From the sequence record OR924452: DNA of 64,000 nt. The stretch is one strand, 5' to 3'. The notes below the pieces were generated by a model. That model was not told the DNA's origin. It did no database searches and saw nothing but the letters and a program-made list of their open reading frames with translations. Every line of letters starts with the position of its first letter. The first letter of the stretch is position 1. Source of the stretch: Escherichia phage 241. A program made the position numbers and the translations under genes. This document shows, piece by piece, positions 34,469 to 44,387 of this stretch.

Positions 34469-34497
34469 AACAGAGGCTATAATGGCCTCTGTTTTTG
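34469..34497 (+). terminator. rho-independent terminator
   Basis: CAGAGGC-TATAATG-GCCTCTG hairpin followed by TTTTTG. Confidence 0.6.
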
Positions 34498-34515
34498 TAT
34501 TCTAGAGAGGATACC

Positions 34516-35739
34516 ATGAAAGATAAACCGTGTGACATTCCTTATTGCGGTGTTCGGGAAACCAAAATTAAATCTGCACACCCCACGTTAAGTCCATTCC
34601 ATAAACAACTCGCATACGAATGGATGAGTGAGCGCTATAAGATCCACGTGAGAAAGGACGTCCAACGTCTTCCTGCTCCTTGGACGGATAATCCCATACT
34701 ACGGCAGGTCAAGTTCTGTAACGTCCGGAGAGAGCACGACAGGCAGTCTCTTAACCTGATCAACAATATCGTCAAGAACGATGCTCTGGGCATGGCCGAC
34801 AAGATGTTCAACTGTGTTCTGTTCCGCATGTTCAACCTCTGGGACCCGATCAAGGCTATCGGTGACGCTCGTACTATCAAAGAGTTCGCAAACATCGATC
34901 TTGATGCAACCCGCAAAAGTCTTCAGGAATTTGAGGCCAACGGTGGTAAGATCTTCACCAATGCCTTCAACACAGGCGGTCTAAAGCAGTGTCTGGCGTT
35001 CCCCGAACTCGTTGTCAACCACAAGGAGCAGCGCTTTGGTGGTATGATGGTTAAGGTACACCGTGTTGGCCAGGGTATCGTTGATGAATTGGATTACAAG
35101 GTCGCCAAGAAGCTGGTTGAAGAAAATCCTGGGGAGTACACGATCGAGGGCTGGGAGCCGTACATGCCGATGCGTGTTATCCGTTCCCTGAAGGCATTTG
35201 TCAACAAGTATCCTGATTATTTCAATGATCTTTTACGTCTTGACTCTCCGCTGAAAGTTTACCAGCGCATGTATGACGACATTGAAGGGCTTGGGCCATT
35301 CCTGGCATATCAGATATGGGTGGACTTCACATACATCCCTGAGTATCCATTCAGTGAGAATCACTTCACCATCGCTGGCCCAGGTTGCCGTGCGGGTATT
35401 GACCTGATGTTCCTGGATAAGGACGGTATGACTCATGAAGAGTGCATCTTCTGGGTTCGAGATCACCAGTATCAATTGTTTGCCCAGTATGGTTATGTCC
35501 AAGAGCAGTTCTGGTCAGCCGAAGCGCCGGAAGATCAGTGCATGAATGTCATGCAGCTGGAGAACATGTTCTGTGAATTGAGCAAGTACACCCGCTGTGT
35601 TGAGGCTATTGAGAGAGGGGAAAAGCCACGCGGCAAGGTCGGTTACGATGGAGGCGGAGAATACAAAAAGCGGTGCGATGAAGTTGTCCTTAAACGCGGT
35701 TCCGTCAATTTGTTAGATCGTTTGAAGAAACCTGAATAA
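34516..35739 (+). CDS. hypothetical protein (407 aa), Cys-rich
   Basis: ATG 34516 with GAGAGGATA RBS; no family assignable by inspection. Confidence 0.5.
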   Translation: MKDKPCDIPYCGVRETKIKSAHPTLSPFHKQLAYEWMSERYKIHVRKDVQRLPAPWTDNPILRQVKFCNVRREHDRQSLNLINNIVKNDALGMADKMFNCVLFRMFNLWDPIKAIGDARTIKEFANIDLDATRKSLQEFEANGGKIFTNAFNTGGLKQCLAFPELVVNHKEQRFGGMMVKVHRVGQGIVDELDYKVAKKLVEENPGEYTIEGWEPYMPMRVIRSLKAFVNKYPDYFNDLLRLDSPLKVYQRMYDDIEGLGPFLAYQIWVDFTYIPEYPFSENHFTIAGPGCRAGIDLMFLDKDGMTHEECIFWVRDHQYQLFAQYGYVQEQFWSAEAPEDQCMNVMQLENMFCELSKYTRCVEAIERGEKPRGKVGYDGGGEYKKRCDEVVLKRGSVNLLDRLKKPE

Positions 35740-35851
35740 AGAATCGCTTTACTTCATTCTTCAATAACCCCCTTTCAACGTATATTGACCTCACTTTAAC
35801 GACGCGCCCATTTAGGGCGCTCAATTTGAACTGAAACAGGAAGACTACACC

Positions 35852-37873
35852 ATGGCAGAATTTAAACCTTTCGCAACGGCTGTTAATGATAACGTGCTGG
35901 CGATGTCCGCAACTGGTCTGTTCATGACCAACGTTGATAAAGATGCTCTGTGGGATTTGTATTTGGCATCCTTCCCAGCTGGTACCAACCCGATGTACCG
36001 CGAACGCACTGAACACGACTGCACCTGCTGTAAACAATTCATCCGTAATATCGGCGGCGTCGTGACTATCGATGCTGACCTGAACGTTATCTCGATTTGG
36101 GACAACATTGAGCTGGGTAACGAATACGATGTGGTCGCGGCGGCGTTATCTGCATATGTCAAACAACACGCAATCGTTGATGTGTATTTCAACGATTCTG
36201 CTAAAGTCGGCCTGTCTCATAACCACGAATCTGGTGAAGACGGCAAAATCCGCACGTATAACCATTTCCACACAGAACTGCTCGGCAGCTATGTCCTGCG
36301 TTCTGATGCTATCGCATCTAAAAAAGGTGAAATCCGACAGGCTATCGAATTATTTGAACGCGGTCTGCGTGAAATTACTCTGGAATCAGCAGAAATCGTT
36401 CTGGAATTGATTGATCAGAATTCTTTGTATCGCGGTGCTGAACATAAAGCTGCGGTGATGGGCTTCGTAGTAGCCAAGACGGCATATGAAGAAATCCCAG
36501 AATCTAACCGTTCTCTGTGGGCATGGCGCACTGGTTATCGTTCAAACAATCATGTTCCACATGGCATTCGCAACACCGTTATCGGTACTCTGTTGACGGA
36601 TATCAGTGAAGGCGTGGAACTGGAAAAGGCCGTTAAGTCGTTTGAAACCAAAGTTGCCCCAGCGAACTACAAACGCCCGACGGCTCTGGTCTCCAAGTCC
36701 ATGATCGAAAACGCTCAGAAAGAAGTGATTGCTCTCGGTCTGGAAGATTCGCTGGCGCGTCGTTATGCAGTTTATGACGACCTGACGATCAATAACGTTC
36801 TGTTTGCAGACCTGGCTGCTCAAAAAGCGATGGATCCATTCGCTCAACTGGCCGCCGAAGTGAAAACGCCGACCAAGTCTCTGGATAAAGTTGAAGAGAT
36901 TGGCATTGATGACTTCCTGAGCAATATTCTGCCGAAAGCGCATTCGATGGAAGTGCTGGTTGAAAACTCGCATACTGGCAACCTTATGTCTCTGGTCGCT
37001 CCGGCTATTGCAGGTGCTCCTAACCTTTTCAAATGGGGCAACGGTTTCTCATGGTCATACAACGGCGAAGTGGCCGACTCCATCAAAGAGCGTGTGAAAG
37101 CGGCTGGCGGTAAAGTCGACGGGTTCCTCCGTGTATCCCTGGCCTGGCACAACAACGATGACCTCGATCTGCATATGTTCTTTAACAATATGGAACATGT
37201 GTACTTCCGCGATCGTCGTTCAATGACTGGTGCTCATCTCGATATCGACATGAACGGTATGGACGGCATCGACCCGAACCGCTCTCCGGTAGAAAACATC
37301 ATCTTCACTGATGAAAGAAAGTTGCGTGACGGTGAATATCGTTTTGAGATTCACAACTACAACCAACGTGAAAAGATCGACGAAGGGTTTGAAATTGAAG
37401 TTGAATACAAAGGCGCTACGCAACGTTTCAGCCACAATGGGTTAAAAGACCAGGGGCGCATCACTGCCGTCGTTCTGACTGTTAAAGACAAACAAGTCGT
37501 TAGCATCAAGTCTGAGCTGGCGAATGTTGATAAATCCAAAGAAATTTGGGGCATTAAGACAGCGACCTTCCAGAAGGTACAGCTGGTCCTGAACTCACCA
37601 AACCATTGGGATGGTGAACAAACTGGCAACAAGCACGTCTTCTTCATCTTGGAAGGTTGTGCGAATCCTGAAGGTACTCGTGGTTTCTACAATGAATATC
37701 TGAAGCCGGAACTGGATAAACATCGTAAGGTTTTTGAAATGCTGGGTAGTAAAATGAAAGTACAACCCAACGAAAACCAACTGTCTGGTCTGGGGTTCTC
37801 GACAACGCAACGCAACCATGTGTTCGTCAAAGTGTCCGGCGCGTTTAACCGTACTGTAAAAGTCATTTTCTAA
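35852..37873 (+). CDS. hypothetical large protein (673 aa)
   Basis: Long ORF with GGAAGA RBS; conserved-looking HDCTCC motif near N-terminus; no family recognised. Confidence 0.6.
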   Translation: MAEFKPFATAVNDNVLAMSATGLFMTNVDKDALWDLYLASFPAGTNPMYRERTEHDCTCCKQFIRNIGGVVTIDADLNVISIWDNIELGNEYDVVAAALSAYVKQHAIVDVYFNDSAKVGLSHNHESGEDGKIRTYNHFHTELLGSYVLRSDAIASKKGEIRQAIELFERGLREITLESAEIVLELIDQNSLYRGAEHKAAVMGFVVAKTAYEEIPESNRSLWAWRTGYRSNNHVPHGIRNTVIGTLLTDISEGVELEKAVKSFETKVAPANYKRPTALVSKSMIENAQKEVIALGLEDSLARRYAVYDDLTINNVLFADLAAQKAMDPFAQLAAEVKTPTKSLDKVEEIGIDDFLSNILPKAHSMEVLVENSHTGNLMSLVAPAIAGAPNLFKWGNGFSWSYNGEVADSIKERVKAAGGKVDGFLRVSLAWHNNDDLDLHMFFNNMEHVYFRDRRSMTGAHLDIDMNGMDGIDPNRSPVENIIFTDERKLRDGEYRFEIHNYNQREKIDEGFEIEVEYKGATQRFSHNGLKDQGRITAVVLTVKDKQVVSIKSELANVDKSKEIWGIKTATFQKVQLVLNSPNHWDGEQTGNKHVFFILEGCANPEGTRGFYNEYLKPELDKHRKVFEMLGSKMKVQPNENQLSGLGFSTTQRNHVFVKVSGAFNRTVKVIF

Positions 37874-37910
37874 TTGATTTGACAACAACTTCGTAATAAG
37901 GAACAAAGAA

Positions 37911-38282
37911 ATGTTTGATCAAGCAACCCGTTTAAAACTGCGTTTTAACTCCAACAAAGGTCTGCTGTCTGTTGAGCAGGTTTGGGATCTGAATCTGAAC
38001 GCACTGAACGAGCTGGCGAAAGATCTGAGCCGTCAGGTGAAAGAAGCAGCCAGTGATGAAGAAGACTTCATCGGTGTGAAAAGCGCGGTCGATTCTCAGT
38101 TACAACTGCGGTTCGATATCGTGAAAGCGATCATCGGTGTTAAACTGAAAGAACGCGATGAAAGCGCGACCGCAGCAGAGCGTAAAGCGAACAACCAGGC
38201 GATCATGGAACTGATCCAGCGTAAGAAACAACAGGAACTGGAAGGTCTGTCTGTTGAAGAACTGGAAAAACTCCTGAAATAA
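37911..38282 (+). CDS. hypothetical protein (123 aa, predicted helical)
   Basis: ORF with AAGGAA RBS, followed by strong terminator. Confidence 0.5.
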   Translation: MFDQATRLKLRFNSNKGLLSVEQVWDLNLNALNELAKDLSRQVKEAASDEEDFIGVKSAVDSQLQLRFDIVKAIIGVKLKERDESATAAERKANNQAIMELIQRKKQQELEGLSVEELEKLLK

Positions 38283-38301
38283 TCTGTCGGCTCCGGCCTG
38301 A

Positions 38302-38330
38302 GAAACCCCGCACACGGCGGGGTTTCTTTT
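38302..38330 (+). terminator. rho-independent terminator
   Basis: GAAACCCCGC-ACACG-GCGGGGTTTC hairpin followed by TTTT. Confidence 0.7.
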
Positions 38331-38341
38331 GGACAAAAATC

Positions 38342-38752
38342 ATGAAATCTATTACGTGTGATTACTGCGGTCAACCTGCCCAATACGTCGGGGGTGATGT
38401 TGTATACCCCCACCGCCCCGATCTCCGCAATCTGAAGTTCTGGGTATGCTCGCCATGCGACGCTCGTGTGGGTTGCCATACCCATGGGGATGGTAGACAA
38501 CCTCTGGGAAGGATGGCGAATGCCGCTCTCCGTGCTGCTAAGCAGGAAGCTCATAGATCGTTTGACCCTATCTGGAAAAGTGGGCAGAGGAGCAGGAGTG
38601 ATGCTTACAGCTGGCTGGCTCATAATTTGGGGATCAAGAAGCGCGATTGCCATATCGGCTTGTTCGATATCGATATGTGCCGTAAAGTAGTCGCTGTGTG
38701 TAATCAACTAAAGGCACAAGATAATGTCAAAGGAAATACAAGAAGCATTTGA
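38342..38752 (+). CDS. zinc-ribbon protein (two CxxC pairs)
   Basis: CDYCG...CSPCDARVGCH cysteine pattern. Confidence 0.5.
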   Translation: MKSITCDYCGQPAQYVGGDVVYPHRPDLRNLKFWVCSPCDARVGCHTHGDGRQPLGRMANAALRAAKQEAHRSFDPIWKSGQRSRSDAYSWLAHNLGIKKRDCHIGLFDIDMCRKVVAVCNQLKAQDNVKGNTRSI

Positions 38753-38975
38753 AAATTTATCTCAGGTAATGACCGACTGCAACCGCCGGAATTATTGTGA
38801 TGAAGCGTATACCAAATTGAAAACTGCTGTTGAAACCGAGCTGGCAGGTCTTTCCGTTTTCAAAGATATTCAGACCGAAGCGCTATATCTGTCGGATGAA
38901 GATTTAAGGCGTTGCCCCCGCAAGATTTACCAATTACTGGATCGTTTGGTGAAAGTGGGGGTGAATAATGGGTAA
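38724..38975 (+). CDS. hypothetical protein (83 aa)
   Basis: ORF overlapping neighbours by short junctions. Confidence 0.4.
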   Translation: MSKEIQEAFENLSQVMTDCNRRNYCDEAYTKLKTAVETELAGLSVFKDIQTEALYLSDEDLRRCPRKIYQLLDRLVKVGVNNG

Positions 38976-39693
38976 TCGTGAAGGGATTAAACTCACACCA
39001 GAACTTCTGAAGTCACATATTGCTGAAGTGATTTATGAAGACCGTGAAGTTGGTGGTCACCGCGTCATTACATGCCATTTCAAGATGGACAATGGGTTCG
39101 TTGTGTGGGGTAAGAATAGTTCCACATCGGTAGACCCTGCCAACTTCGATGAAGAAATAGGCAAGCAGCTGGCCTATGAAAAGACCTTTTCTCAACTGTG
39201 GGAACTGGAAGCATATCGCGCGATGGTAGAAAAGCAGATCATCGATGTGTCTGCCGAAGATGCTAAGATCAACATTGATGAATATGTGTCAGAAAGGGAA
39301 GCGATACATGAGATGGGTGGTTCTGAATTTCTTAAGGGTAAAGGACAATCCATCGTGTTTCGTCATCCCAAAGATCCAAGTCGGGGATTTCGCGTTGAAT
39401 TTGTTCGCACCGATAATGAACGTTATAACGAACGACGCAATGGTGAGGCACGATCTTTGGTGGAAGCGTATCTTCGCTCGTTCATGACTTCTGAAGATCT
39501 AAATTCTGAACTTGTCCTGCGTTTGGCGAAAACGTGTAATGCTGCTTCAGGGGATTATCCGTGGTGTGACCTGTCAGAAGACAAACGCCAAGCAGCCTGT
39601 GATCGTGTTAAGAAATTCTTGTTAGATCCAAAAGCCCAACCTGGCGATTCCGTAGGGGCACTGTATAGAGCCATTGTGGTGTCCTACTTGTAA
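38968..39693 (+). CDS. protein with N-terminal N4-gp49 / Sf6-gp66-like domain
   Basis: VITCHFKMDNGFVVWGKNSSTSVDPANFDEEIGKQLAYEKTFSQLWELEAY resembles the phage gp49/gp66 family signature. Confidence 0.5.
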   Translation: MGNREGIKLTPELLKSHIAEVIYEDREVGGHRVITCHFKMDNGFVVWGKNSSTSVDPANFDEEIGKQLAYEKTFSQLWELEAYRAMVEKQIIDVSAEDAKINIDEYVSEREAIHEMGGSEFLKGKGQSIVFRHPKDPSRGFRVEFVRTDNERYNERRNGEARSLVEAYLRSFMTSEDLNSELVLRLAKTCNAASGDYPWCDLSEDKRQAACDRVKKFLLDPKAQPGDSVGALYRAIVVSYL

Positions 39694-39960
39694 TTCTTCA
39701 AAAGTCTTTCAAAATCAATAACGTCCGGCAAAATGCTGGGCGTTTCAATTAATAAGCCAAGGTATAATGGCCCAACTGAAAACGCGGGGGAATTTCTTTG
39801 TCCAAGCCATTCATTCGTTCCGGAGTTGATTCTCTAGACTCCCAGTTTAAGCCGAGCGAAGTTTTAATCCAACAAATTGAAACCAATCGTGAATTCATAG
39901 AACACATGTTGGCAAAGCCGGAAGGTGAAGCCGCTCAAACCACCAAAGAAGGTAATAACG

Positions 39961-42177
39961 ATGATTGAATCATTAACATTTAAAAATGCGGTAGCAACCG
40001 TCGCGCCGTCTAACCATGTAATCGTTGTGGATATCTCCGGTTCCATGTACCGTTCACTTCCTGAAGTTCGCAAGCATCTGAAGGAAAATCTCCCGTCTCT
40101 GGTTAAACCAGAAGATACCGTCAGCATTCTTTACTTTTCATCCCGTGGTGATTTCGGTACGGTATTCGCTGGCCGTCAGATCAATAGCGCGACCGATCTC
40201 AGTGAAATCAATAAACTGATTGACCGCTTCCTGCAACCGTCCGGTTGTACGGGATTTGTAGAACCTCTGAAGTTGGCTGCTGAAACCGCGTTGAGCCTGA
40301 ACAAACCTGGTTATGTCAATAACCTGGCGTTCATGACCGACGGCTATGACAACTGCTGGCGCTCGAATGAAATTCTGGCAGCAGCTGAAGTACTGCCCAA
40401 GGCGTTCGATAATATTACATTCATCGAATATGGCTGGTACTGTAACCGCGAACTTCTGGCCCTGATGTCCGAGCGTTCTGGCGCGACTCACGTGTTTGCC
40501 GAAGGTCAGACTGAATATCAGACCGAACTGGAAAACGTACTGAAATCATCTACGCCGAAAGTGGTTGTTGATGTTCCCCTGGTTTACACTCATGCCATTT
40601 ACGTTGAAAACGGCGTGGCAACTGTGCTAGCCGTACAACCCGATGAAGAACACCCGATTGGCCACGTCAGCATCCCTGAAAGCGTTTCTCAGCTGTGGGT
40701 TGTAAACCCTGACATGATCGACCAGCTGGATAATCTGGCAGACACCCAGGCGGCATACGTGCTGGCATTCTATGGCGTGTACACCATGGACGCCGATCTG
40801 GTCTGGGCCGCGCTGAAGAAGACGGGTGACGTCCGCTTCATCAAACAATACAGCAACTGTTTCACCAAGCAGGACTATTCCAACATCAAAGTCGATCTGA
40901 CCCAGGCTATCGTGGATGAAACTCTGCGCGGCGTAGATGGCATCGATTACAATATGGTTCCAGCTGAAGATGCAACGACCATTGTTGATGTCTTGACCTA
41001 CCTGGCCGAAGCCGATGTCTCTGTTGTCACTAAGCATCCGCTGTTCTCTTACAACAGCATCGGTCGCGGTACTGTGCAGAAAGTTGATGACACTGAAGAC
41101 AAGCTGGCTGAACAAATCGCCGAAGCCAAAACCAAAGCAGAGCGTAAAGCGCTGGCTCTCAAACTGGCTGAGCACGAAGATTGGACGCCGGAATTTACTC
41201 CGGTTGATGACAAAGGGATTGTCCCAATTAGCAATCTGGTCTACAATTCAGAGCGCCCTAACATCAGCATTCAGACCGTTCAGCATGGGACGGTTGTTGT
41301 GCCGGAGTTCGTACAGAAGAAATATGAACTCCCTGAAGAACTGGGAACCTGGCGTTATCGTAATTACACCATCGTCAAAGATGGAATCATCAACCTGAAG
41401 ACGATGCCGATTACTGCCGAATCTCCGATTGTCCGAGCTAAGGTTGTCCAAGATTTGATCGCCATGGGCGTTAATGTATTTGGTGGACCGGAAATCTTCA
41501 TCGTTAATTTAGAAAGTGTTCCGATGGTCAACCGCGCCATGACCAAGAACATCAGTGCTGCCGAATTCTTCGCTGACAACGTTCGTCGCGAAGCGCTGAA
41601 GGCAAAACAGAAAGTTCTGAAATTCTATCGTGATGAACTGGTTGGCAAAGGCAATGCAACTGGTCTGGCTTCTAAATATGGTAAAGAAGCCGCCGATTTC
41701 TTGTCGGCAAATGGCATTCGCGACTACGGGTTCTCGCCGAAAACTACTTCTGTGGAATCAACCGATGTCTACATGAGCCGTGAGCTGAATGTGAAAATCA
41801 AAGGTGCTTCGTCGCTGCCGAGCATTGCGTCAGTTATCAAAAAGCAAGCAGATGGTAAAAAACTGAATGTCGCTGATCAGTTGATTGCCAATGCTCTGGC
41901 CGAATACGACGCTTTTGTTAAATCTCCAATGATCACCAGCGTACCTGAAGAGACTCAGAAAAAGCTGATTGAAAGCTGGATCGGAGACGCAGCAAAAGCG
42001 GCCATTAACGAAGTCCGCGCCCTGAACAAAACGCTGTCTAAAGTCGTTTACGGCATCGTCGCTGGTCATGGTTGGTTCACTGATTTGGATCTGGAAGAGT
42101 CTACGATGGATGTAGAAGTTGATGGGGTGAAATACACCGTCACTGCCGAACTGGCCGAAAAAGAAATCAAAATCTAA
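39961..42177 (+). CDS. von Willebrand factor type A (vWA) domain protein with long C-terminal extension
   Basis: MIDAS motif VVDISGSM (DxSxS) and downstream MTDGYDN; ATG 39961 preferred over upstream GTG 39925. Confidence 0.65.
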   Translation: MIESLTFKNAVATVAPSNHVIVVDISGSMYRSLPEVRKHLKENLPSLVKPEDTVSILYFSSRGDFGTVFAGRQINSATDLSEINKLIDRFLQPSGCTGFVEPLKLAAETALSLNKPGYVNNLAFMTDGYDNCWRSNEILAAAEVLPKAFDNITFIEYGWYCNRELLALMSERSGATHVFAEGQTEYQTELENVLKSSTPKVVVDVPLVYTHAIYVENGVATVLAVQPDEEHPIGHVSIPESVSQLWVVNPDMIDQLDNLADTQAAYVLAFYGVYTMDADLVWAALKKTGDVRFIKQYSNCFTKQDYSNIKVDLTQAIVDETLRGVDGIDYNMVPAEDATTIVDVLTYLAEADVSVVTKHPLFSYNSIGRGTVQKVDDTEDKLAEQIAEAKTKAERKALALKLAEHEDWTPEFTPVDDKGIVPISNLVYNSERPNISIQTVQHGTVVVPEFVQKKYELPEELGTWRYRNYTIVKDGIINLKTMPITAESPIVRAKVVQDLIAMGVNVFGGPEIFIVNLESVPMVNRAMTKNISAAEFFADNVRREALKAKQKVLKFYRDELVGKGNATGLASKYGKEAADFLSANGIRDYGFSPKTTSVESTDVYMSRELNVKIKGASSLPSIASVIKKQADGKKLNVADQLIANALAEYDAFVKSPMITSVPEETQKKLIESWIGDAAKAAINEVRALNKTLSKVVYGIVAGHGWFTDLDLEESTMDVEVDGVKYTVTAELAEKEIKI

Positions 42178-42183
42178 ATCTAA

Positions 42184-42210
42184 TTGGCGGGGAAACCCGC
42201 CTTTACTTTC
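42184..42210 (+). terminator. hairpin terminator
   Basis: GGCGGG-GAAA-CCCGCC hairpin followed by TTTACTTTC. Confidence 0.5.
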
Positions 42211-42215
42211 AGGAA

Positions 42216-42533
42216 ATGAATATGAGCAACAAACCGACTTATGTTGATGTCATGCGCGATTTGGCCCAATACGCATGTGACAACCTGAACATGGAAACTT
42301 GGCGCAACGGCGATCATAAAGAAAAGTTCGATAATATCGACGACAACATCGATGCGTTGGCTCCTCTTCGGGCCAAGAGCGATCTCGGCGGTGATGATCT
42401 TGACATGATTGAACTCATCATGGAAGTTGAAGAACAATATGATGTTGAAATCAGTGATGACTGGGTAGGCAAACATGGTGATGATCCCACGCTCGGCGAA
42501 TTAGCTGAATTGGTAGTTGCCCTCCGCAAATAG
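42216..42533 (+). CDS. acyl-carrier-protein-like protein with Asp in place of the phosphopantetheine-attachment Ser
   Basis: LGGDDLDMIELIMEVEEQYDVEISDD resembles ACP LGADSLDTVELVMALEEEF...IPDE but has DDL instead of DSL; start may be 42222. Confidence 0.5.
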   Translation: MNMSNKPTYVDVMRDLAQYACDNLNMETWRNGDHKEKFDNIDDNIDALAPLRAKSDLGGDDLDMIELIMEVEEQYDVEISDDWVGKHGDDPTLGELAELVVALRK

Positions 42534-42537
42534 CAGA

Positions 42538-42566
42538 AGTCCCCAACAAACCGTTGGGGATTTTTA
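42538..42566 (+). terminator. rho-independent terminator
   Basis: CCCCAAC-AAACC-GTTGGGG hairpin followed by ATTTTTACTTTT. Confidence 0.65.
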
Positions 42567-42655
42567 CTTTTAGGGGGTTTACTCTAGAGAAAGGATACCC
42601 TATTATCCAATAACACCAAACGTCGGGTTTGGTATTTGAAATGAAGGAATATAAT
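42556..42655 (+). repeat. direct repeat copy A (promoter plus 5' leader), about 100 bp
   Basis: GGGGATTTTTACTTTTAGGGG..TTTAC...CCTATTAT..CAATAAC shared with copy B. Confidence 0.6.
42577..42606 (+). promoter_or_regulatory. sigma70-like early promoter (-35 GTTTAC, -10 TATTAT)
   Basis: GTTTAC, 17-18 nt spacer, TATTAT; within repeat copy A. Confidence 0.45.
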
Positions 42656-42874: not shown

Positions 42875-42892
42875 GATACCAAATAACAGAAA

Positions 42893-42925
42893 TCCCCAAT
42901 AATTTATTGGGGATTTTTACTTTTA
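42893..42925 (+). terminator. rho-independent terminator
   Basis: CCCCAAT-AATTT-ATTGGGG hairpin followed by ATTTTTACTTTT. Confidence 0.6.
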
Positions 42926-43003
42926 GGGGTTTACTTCTTCTAACGAATATCCTATTATTCAATAACTGGCTAACGTGGGGTTGGCTAGAAAAGGAGATAC
43001 AAA
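42909..43003 (+). repeat. direct repeat copy B (promoter plus 5' leader)
   Basis: Imperfect copy of 42556-42655. Confidence 0.6.
42929..42958 (+). promoter_or_regulatory. sigma70-like early promoter (-35 GTTTAC, -10 TATTAT)
   Basis: Within repeat copy B. Confidence 0.45.
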
Positions 43004-44308: not shown

Positions 44309-44387
44309 ATACGATAGTTTATTGAAACCCTTTACTCAACATGGTGAGCCGACTATCATTTTATCCAATGAAATAAGGAGAATCACC

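Follow-up and report, generated by a model that had tools for sequence, protein, structure and literature searches.

A 6.7-kb accessory block of Escherichia phage 241, probably a mosaic of independently inherited units around an Acb4-family gene

Our analysis of a 64,000-nt stretch of the genome of Escherichia phage 241 (record OR924452; hereafter the window, whose numbering is used throughout) suggests that the 6.7-kb block at positions 35852-42533 is a mosaic accessory region of the Ackermannviridae, composed of independently inherited and separately terminated units rather than one multi-gene machine, a reading to which we assign a probability of roughly 0.7. The block adds one more example to the known class of phage counter-defence/accessory hot spots, here with a recognisable Acb4-family gene. 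Its first unit, the genes for a 673-aa and a 123-aa protein, is a two-gene module common to many unrelated virulent phages. In the second, three overlapping genes encode a DUF3268 zinc-finger protein, an 83-aa protein and, as last member, an Acb4-family protein. The third, comprising a 56-aa gene, a vWA-domain gene and a gene for a protein resembling acyl carrier protein (ACP), may constitute a protein-binding device whose vWA member has an intact metal-ion-dependent adhesion site (MIDAS).

Gene content, boundaries and inheritance of the block

The original prediction, made from the sequence alone, had placed the block in a T4-type backbone, which a comparison of genomes contradicts. Along its entire length the block shares 99% identity with many Kuttervirus genomes, among them those of Salmonella phages ST2, Matapan, Mooltan and Vi01, with 260 phage records matching it in nucleotide comparison, and by this measure the backbone is that of a Kuttervirus (ViI/Vi01-like, Ackermannviridae) carrying T4-like replication genes, not that of a T4-type phage. 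The seven open reading frames (ORFs) first recognised in the block all lie on the + strand where they had been placed, and every one of them is matched by homologues from hundreds of phage records; the domain calls made for them agree with Pfam (Table 1). The terminators proposed at 38302 and 42538 are stable hairpins followed by U-runs, and neither folding energy was reached in 200 shuffles. Counting the 56-aa gene, the block holds eight genes instead of seven, split by hairpins into four units and laid out as 673-123, terminator, 136-83-241, hairpin, 56-vWA, hairpin, ACP-like, terminator, and overlaps of start and stop codons are confined to the inside of the units delimited in this way.

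The proposal that these genes form a single undescribed seven-gene system did not survive the comparison of their distributions, for which each protein was searched by tblastn against 50,697 phage records. The 673-aa protein was found in 557 records, from the Ackermannviridae, Caulobacter phiCbK-like phages, Bacillus Bastillevirinae, Schitoviridae and Vequintavirinae to Vibrio, Xanthomonas and Pseudomonas phages, and the 123-aa protein has the same phage distribution; at least eight other lineages carry this pair alone. The DUF3268 protein (681 records, including Pseudomonas, Vibrio and Enterococcus phages) and the gp49-type domain of the 241-aa protein (517 records) each have a distribution of their own. 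The vWA protein occurs in 503 records, reaching from the Ackermannviridae to T4-like Pseudotevenvirus and related phages (48% identity) and to AR9 and Rhizobium phages (23-26%), with no other block gene beside it in Lw1 or AR9, and the ACP-like protein is restricted to the Ackermannviridae (271 records).

Reshuffling is also seen within the genus. Among Kutterviruses the 673-aa, 123-aa and vWA proteins are 82-100% identical, while for both the Acb4-like and the 56-aa gene two alleles are found, one about 97% and the other about 45% identical to that of the window. Two Kuttervirus loci have a 300-bp insert in the middle of the block. Presence of the 83-aa gene varies, only some Kutterviruses having it (L001-L003, L018-L020 and L025 among the loci examined), and the DUF3268 gene is missing from one Kuttervirus locus (L028). 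Losses are also seen in Limestonevirus: in Dickeya phage XF4 (locus L010, 3829-6180) the vWA and ACP-like genes are intact, and what is left of the others is an 89-codon stub of the 673-aa gene, pieces of the DUF3268 gene, an Acb4-like gene cut short and 111 aa of NamPT. The eroded region adjoins a homing endonuclease (F-LimVI), and such fragments are also seen in BFVD. These natural deletions imply that the units function independently. Across genomes, only the sub-pairs 673-aa plus 123-aa and 56-aa plus vWA (plus ACP-like) are inherited together; the block as a whole is not. Independent action, or known individual functions, of the genes would speak against a common system, and these are in evidence in part.

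Table 1. Features of the block and its upstream border in the window
Feature	Position	Strand	Evidence and remarks
ViI gp160, aGPT-Pplase1-type DNA-glycosylase-fold protein of the thymidine-hypermodification set; upstream neighbour, outside the block	34495..35739	+	Pfam HMUDK_hel E 3e-83; = Vi01_130c/orf00160
Candidate promoter TCAATAAC-N12-TATATT upstream of the 673-aa gene (weak evidence)	35761..35786	+	Motif also precedes the orthologue in divergent Kutterviruses and in Erwinia phage Bue1
673-aa protein, large virus-only family	35852..37873	+	Precomputed Pfam label PF26675; phrog_1735
123-aa helical partner protein, directly downstream of the 673-aa homologue	37911..38282	+	phrog_2018
Intrinsic terminator closing the 673/123 unit	38300..38328	+	-21.2 kcal/mol, z -5.9, then UUUU; annotated terminator in Matapan
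136-aa DUF3268 zinc-finger protein	38342..38752	+	PF11672 E 7e-38
83-aa protein, overlaps both neighbouring genes	38724..38975	+	phrog_9847
241-aa protein; aa 9-85 match the Acb4-family domain	38968..39693	+	PF13876 (Phage_gp49_66) E 9.7e-13, 48.9 bits vs cut-off 27
Hairpin, probable terminator, 3' of the Acb4-like gene	39720..39744	+	-15.9 kcal/mol, z -5.5; then TATAAT at 39763-39768
56-aa gene, TTG start; stop overlaps vWA ATG by 8 nt	39798..39968	+	phrog_8656 E 5e-40; annotated coding sequence in Matapan and Guerrero
738-aa protein: N-terminal vWA domain, beta-sandwich, ~480 aa of C-terminal domains	39961..42177	+	VWA E 8e-7
GC-rich hairpin between vWA and ACP-like genes	42186..42201	+	-13.8 kcal/mol, z -4.2, then UUUACUUU
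105-aa acidic protein, ACP fold, Asp at the phosphopantetheine-attachment serine (pseudo-ACP)	42216..42533	+	PP-binding E 5e-7
Intrinsic terminator closing the block	42536..42563	+	-17.1 kcal/mol, z -5.4, then UUUUU; annotated terminator in Matapan

The Acb4-family gene and the junction behind it

By its match to PF13876, the 241-aa protein is a member of the Acb4 (anti-CBASS 4) family. The founding member, Acb4 of Bacillus phage SPO1, is a 96-aa tetrameric sponge for 3'3'-cGAMP, a ligand bound by all eight of the Acb4 homologues tested, several of which carry 'extensions' (bioRxiv 10.1101/2024.12.30.630793), and Acb4 domains are frequently fused to other sponges (bioRxiv 10.1101/2025.07.12.664507). 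The single 241-aa sequence fails to reach the 9E4W structure of SPO1 Acb4 in a search of the PDB; a profile of the window domain and six homologues (7 sequences) has 9e4w_A as its top PDB match (E 1.8e-7, residues 14-87 of 97). The Acb4-like protein would be expected to form an oligomer and sequester the cyclic-dinucleotide signals of CBASS, so that the host effector is not activated. In phage N4 (locus L038, 517-1370), a Tad2-like (PF11195) gene stands directly after the Acb4-family gene, placing an anti-CBASS and an anti-Thoeris sponge side by side.

A sister Kuttervirus allele (L022) and gp100 of Erwinia phage Bue1 are fusions of an Acb4-like and an RyR domain, with matches to PF02026 above the cut-off (E 2e-10 and 8e-10, respectively). 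The 241-aa protein gives no PF02026 match even at E <= 1, and aligns to the sister RyR-fusion allele over aa 1-228 without the RyR core (HESW..GW.YG..K.HP..VPY) and its ligand-binding His, Trp and Asp. Judging from this alignment, its C-terminal part is the remnant of an RyR fusion from which the core is missing.

The interval that follows (39694-39960) had been described as a 267-bp untranslated gap. It in fact holds a conserved 56-aa gene and a hairpin, leaving only 104 bp of non-coding DNA. The 56-aa ORF is 59-66% identical in Agtrevirus and Limestonevirus and 45% identical in the second Kuttervirus allele, Taipeivirus has a shorter ORF at its position, and the 8-nt overlap with the vWA start codon is constant in all alleles and genera compared. 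Since the conservation of its acidic C-terminus follows from this overlap, it carries no weight for the idea, considered and set aside, that the C-terminus serves as a ligand of the vWA MIDAS. Compared with Guerrero, the window phage shows a clean 360-bp deletion of a 119-aa gene (window 39780-39800; L001 12944-13305), and the 56-aa ORF uses the ribosome-binding site of the deleted gene. The 119-aa gene, which has no Pfam match, is present in Guerrero, ChubbyThor, Magnus and others. In ChubbyThor, the orthologue of the 241-aa gene is followed by an equivalent hairpin, with changed stem bases, and by TTTCAATT...TATAAT.

Related genera carry other cargo in this region. In the Agtrevirus ChubbyThor, a Shigella phage, a Prs-like gene and a gene of the NAPRTase family (NamPT-like) lie exactly where the window has its supposed gap, and in the Taipeivirus Magnus the Prs-like and NamPT-like pair immediately follows the 123-aa gene, one junction further upstream. 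A review has linked these variable RPPK/NAMPT genes of Agtreviruses to the NARP1 pathway (PMC11721090); the pair is absent from the window, as judged by an ORF and Pfam check. From these comparisons, the junction after the DUF3268/83-aa/Acb4-like unit is a recombination hot spot at which counter-defence cargo (RyR domain, NARP1 pair, 119-aa gene) is swapped, and the whole region between the 123-aa and vWA genes behaves, to judge from its gene content, like an island of counter-defence genes whose cargo can be exchanged. The latter conclusion follows from the Acb4 family match in the window, taken together with the RyR domain in sister phages and the NAD+ gene pair in sister genera. The earlier guess of an anti-defence role can therefore be kept for the middle of the block, though not in its original form of one seven-gene system, and the neighbours of the Acb4-family gene are good candidates for additional roles of this type.

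Several points weigh against our interpretation. When the contact residues of SPO1 Acb4 (K36, F48, E49, V56, Y57, F62, N63, I66, T70 and K81) are mapped through the profile-9E4W alignment, their equivalents in the window protein are, in the same order, R32, F44, V45, S54, V55, F60, D61, I64, L68 and E79. Only four of the ten ligand contacts are kept or conservatively replaced (K36R, F48, F62, I66) and five are changed (E49V, V56S, Y57V, T70L, K81E), N63, the equivalent of D61, being a backbone contact; N4-type homologues have the same residues as the window protein at the mapped positions. Because of the five changes, the ligand preference of the 241-aa protein is not to be assumed: its ligand may differ from that of Acb4, or binding may have been lost. 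The protein is moreover a fusion with a C-terminal extension, compared with the Acb4 sponge of about 96-100 aa. As to the units themselves, read-through of the weaker hairpins could still yield one long transcript, the roles proposed for units 1 and 3 are drawn only from fold, motifs and gene neighbourhood, and the order 673-123-DUF3268-Acb4-like-...-vWA is roughly conserved across the Ackermannviridae out to Erwinia phage Bue1, which is compatible with some functional coupling. This approximate synteny, and the contiguity of all genes on one strand up to a strong terminator, are what one would expect if all seven or eight products acted together in one undescribed host-takeover or anti-defence system. 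We consider such a system very improbable in view of the different phage distribution of each component, the replacement of alleles and loss of genes within a single genus, the Limestonevirus genomes that retain the vWA and ACP-like genes without the others, the 673/123 pair standing alone in other lineages and the internal terminator-like hairpins that divide the block.

The flanking modules

More than 7,389 homologues, almost uniform in length, were found for the 673-aa protein of the first unit. It gave no sequence match in Pfam (in a copy that lacks PF26675), NCBIfam or the PDB, nor did a profile of the family find anything significant in the PDB, and a structure search of BFVD returned only uncharacterised viral relatives, one of them from a giant virus. 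In its AlphaFold2 model (pLDDT 82.9) two alpha/beta domains flank a helical one; the N-terminal of the two bears a conserved H-x-C-x-C-C motif and the C-terminal one is interrupted, at about aa 420-555, by an inserted TerD/DUF2135-like beta-sandwich. The 123-aa partner is 34-41% identical in phiCbK, TsarBomba, Paxi, Bue1, Alteromonas AD45-P4, KB57 and Vibrio Nahantvirus, the values for phiCbK, TsarBomba and Paxi being 34-38%. Wherever tblastn located the 123-aa protein (27 loci), it is preceded immediately by a 673-aa homologue, in one case with a 66-aa ORF in between, and with the pairs of phiCbK and TsarBomba, confirmed by alignment and hidden Markov model (HMM), the linkage extends to 29 of 29 loci from unrelated phage families. 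It was judged mainly from GenBank phage records, a scan of viral contigs with a profile of the 123-aa protein having given mostly Kutterviruses. In phiCbK, too, an annotated terminator follows the homologous pair.

In the Vi01 reference (locus L003, 4001-6020) the 673-aa gene is annotated as two coding sequences (Vi01_129c and Vi01_128c, both 'orf00158'), pointing to a frameshift or sequencing error near codon 485. A split of this type probably explains the two adjacent 'putative DNA-directed RNA polymerase' products of Sajous1 (gp179 and gp180); the RNA-polymerase label given to homologues of the 673-aa protein found no support in any search of the present analysis. Pamexvirus, Bosavirus and Ralstonia phage RP13 encode shorter relatives, of about 540 aa, that have neither the TerD-like insert nor the 123-aa partner. 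In Klebsiella phage KB57 (Vequintavirinae; locus L035, 5210-6298), a putative nicotinamide-nucleotide adenylyltransferase gene, another NAD-related neighbour, lies about 1.3 kb downstream of the pair. A gene for a MoxR-type AAA+ ATPase and a DUF2201 gene (metallopeptidase plus vWA-like) are found upstream of the pair in two podovirus lineages only, adjacent to it in Alteromonas AD45-P4 (locus L034, 1-3884) and about 2 kb away in Stenotrophomonas Paxi (locus L006, 4574-6786), and may mean that the pair is repeatedly associated with proteins of the vWA type.

There are two live readings of the 673/123 pair, either as a nucleotide-related enzyme or scaffold, or as a counter-defence module directed against a universal small molecule. 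According to the first, which we regard as possible but short of probable, the pair would belong to the replication/nucleotide-metabolism module, act on a universal substrate and only abut the counter-defence island. It fits with the 40-50% identity of the 673-aa protein between phages of Gram-positive and Gram-negative hosts and with many of the neighbours of the pair: RegA, MazG and Pplase genes precede it in the window, it adjoins the DNA polymerase gene in KB57 and that of the clamp-loader small subunit in Bacillus phage 0524phi7-1, and it lies near dCTP deaminase and ThyX genes in Paxi. The short relatives in Pamexvirus phiH2 and Bosavirus FMYAK-P1 directly adjoin ribonucleotide reductase genes, in FMYAK-P1 ahead of polynucleotide kinase and ligase genes. 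It fits less well with the failure of the large protein to match any known enzyme family in Pfam, NCBIfam or the PDB, with the NAD+ reconstitution genes directly after the pair in Taipeivirus, or with Limestonevirus, which naturally lacks the pair (only aa 1-89 of the large protein are left), making it dispensable there.

It is also conceivable, though we put this forward tentatively, that the two modules flanking the Acb4-like/NARP1 hot spot, the 673/123 pair on one side and the 56-aa/vWA/pseudo-ACP trio on the other, are new counter-defence or host-takeover devices. If so, the 673/123 module, conserved in phages from Bacillus to Salmonella to Caulobacter, might through its TerD-like insert bind or process a universal small molecule, such as a nucleotide-derived immune signal or a metabolite, and the trio might trap or block client proteins of host ACP by pairing a MIDAS-bearing binder with a protein that imitates holo- or apo-ACP but cannot itself be modified.

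The vWA protein of the trio combines its HMM match with a complete DxSxS...T...D MIDAS, and found nothing significant in the PDB by sequence. MoxR-vWA assembly chaperones are known in viruses (PMC7824862), one relative of the vWA protein is annotated 'minor tail protein', and peptides of the vWA, ACP-like and 673-aa proteins have been seen in purified Sajous1 virions (PMC10892097), all of which would suit a role of the vWA protein, alone or together with the ACP-like protein, in assembly as a chaperone or in the virion as a minor component, of the sort proposed for viral MoxR-vWA pairs. We think this unlikely. The Sajous1 virions yielded 1-3 spectra for each of these proteins against hundreds for structural proteins (PMC10892097), trace amounts that do not argue for a structural role; the vWA gene sits among pre-late replication and accessory genes, outside the structural module; and, in contrast to the MoxR-vWA chaperone pairs, no AAA domain is encoded by the eight genes of the block or its annotated flanks.

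The call of an ACP-like fold for the last protein of the trio was right as to the fold, with a PP-binding (PF00550) score of 30.4 bits against a cut-off of 20.8 and all NCBIfam ACP models below their cut-offs, but the serine that defines a carrier is lacking. Its 'DLGGDDLD' aligns with 'DLGADSLD' of E. coli AcpP, so that Ser36 is replaced by Asp, and all 19 phage homologues aligned, which come from four genera, have Asp or Glu there. With the prosthetic-group serine replaced in this way, the protein, which keeps the ACP recognition helix, is no carrier at the canonical site and is most likely, on the strength of these alignments, a mimic or decoy of host ACP or an acidic ligand. A decoy directed at the host is made plausible by the reported toxicity of overproduced apo-ACP to E. 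coli (Keating et al., 1995). That the protein is instead a true carrier, modified at a non-canonical residue for an acyl-transfer or DNA-modification pathway such as the nearby thymidine hypermodification, is suggested by the above-threshold HMM score and by the gp160/aGPT-Pplase1 gene about 6.5 kb away, but seems to us scarcely credible given the 19 substituted homologues, a neighbourhood devoid of acyltransferase, synthase and phosphopantetheinyl transferase genes, and the reconstitution of 5-NeOmdU synthesis by a defined pathway that requires only a kinase, gp247 and gp226 and no ACP-like protein (PMC8989533).

Surroundings of the block and comparison with known systems

Upstream of the block, the + strand order in annotated relatives is UvsY, nuclease, helicase, sliding clamp, clamp loader, RegA, MazG-like pyrophosphatase and aGPT-Pplase1; downstream come small genes, DenV, a ParB-like gene, spanins, a helicase, RNase H, gp55, gp46/47 and primase. 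The aGPT-Pplase1 gene, ViI gp160, is among the five ViI gene products used in the lysate reconstitution of 5-NeOmdU (PMC5889632). Its Pfam name, HMUDK_hel (5-hmdU DNA kinase helical domain), differs from its placement in aGPT-Pplase clade 1 in the literature and GenBank, and is misleading for this gene, which has no kinase-domain match. As gp160 adjoins the block, we considered a tie of the block to thymidine hypermodification and rejected it: nothing links the block genes to this modification, since the published pathway does without them and the 673/123 pair is found in phages without known hypermodification.

No transcriptome literature was found for the Ackermannviridae, and the expression timing of the units is, like their biochemical activities, deduced here from the DNA. 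The TCAATAAC-N12-TATATT promoter candidate is not significantly enriched in the window (4 observed vs 1.2 expected), and the T4-type late promoter TATAAATA is absent from the block. A sigma-70-like motif, TTTACT-N17-TAT(T/C)AT, is repeated downstream of the block in three exact copies (42578-42606, 42930-42958 and 44331-44359); with one mismatch permitted, the window contains 5 matches against 1.3 expected, a number reached in no shuffle. Of the exact copies, the first comes after the 42536-42563 terminator and the second immediately after a 12-bp inverted repeat (42890-42916), and these combinations look like repeated terminator-promoter cassettes of early genes. A PADLOC search of the block gave no matches, an NCBIfam search gave vWA and ACP matches only, all sub-threshold, and at Rfam gathering thresholds neither a DUF3268-associated RNA motif nor any other family was found, the only low-score match being a terminator hairpin.

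Ackermannviridae are widely used in Salmonella and E. coli biocontrol, and to know which of their accessory genes counter CBASS, Thoeris or NAD+ depletion is of help in predicting host range. With the present analysis, what was an anonymous 'gp49-like' gene becomes a testable, putative Acb4-family sponge in a recombination hot spot, and two further targets for experiment are delimited: a gene pair that is 40-50% identical across unrelated phage families, and an ACP look-alike in which the prosthetic-group serine is consistently absent.

The TerD-like insert recalls the calcium-binding beta-sandwiches of TerD and DUF2135 proteins (YfaP, COG4676), but the 673-aa family has no TerD Pfam match and only 3 of 40 members have weak DUF2135 matches. 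We also rejected a phage Ter system built on the TerD-like domain and the vWA protein: unlike phage-borne Ter gene sets, the block has no TerB, TerC or TelA genes, no TerD-family domain was found together with TerB, TerC, TelA or TerF components, and the TerD-like domain is an insert in a much larger virus-specific protein. The vWA protein shares the association of a vWA domain and a beta-sandwich with ArnB, the Sec23/24 trunk and ITIH, but differs from them in its approximately 480 C-terminal residues, which have no fold match. The ACP-like protein differs from AcpP in its longer, unrelated N-terminal part and in having no partner enzymes encoded nearby, and resembles it in being strongly acidic, in its ACP-type helical fold signature and in 52% identity across a 31-residue stretch comprising the attachment loop and recognition helix II. 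In the middle of the block, phage RyR-domain proteins (RyDEP), which degrade or sequester the cyclic ADP-ribose signals of Thoeris and have been found within a NARP1 locus (bioRxiv 10.64898/2026.05.28.727677), are represented in the window by an allele without the core, and the window phage probably lacks RyR activity. In gene architecture, the Agtrevirus and Taipeivirus pair matches the NAD+ reconstitution pathway NARP1 (Adps, Prs-like; Namat, NamPT-like), the activity of the Ackermannviridae pair having been deduced by others from homology. As for SPO1 Acb4 (9E4W), the 241-aa protein retains its core GF...G...F..E.G motif.

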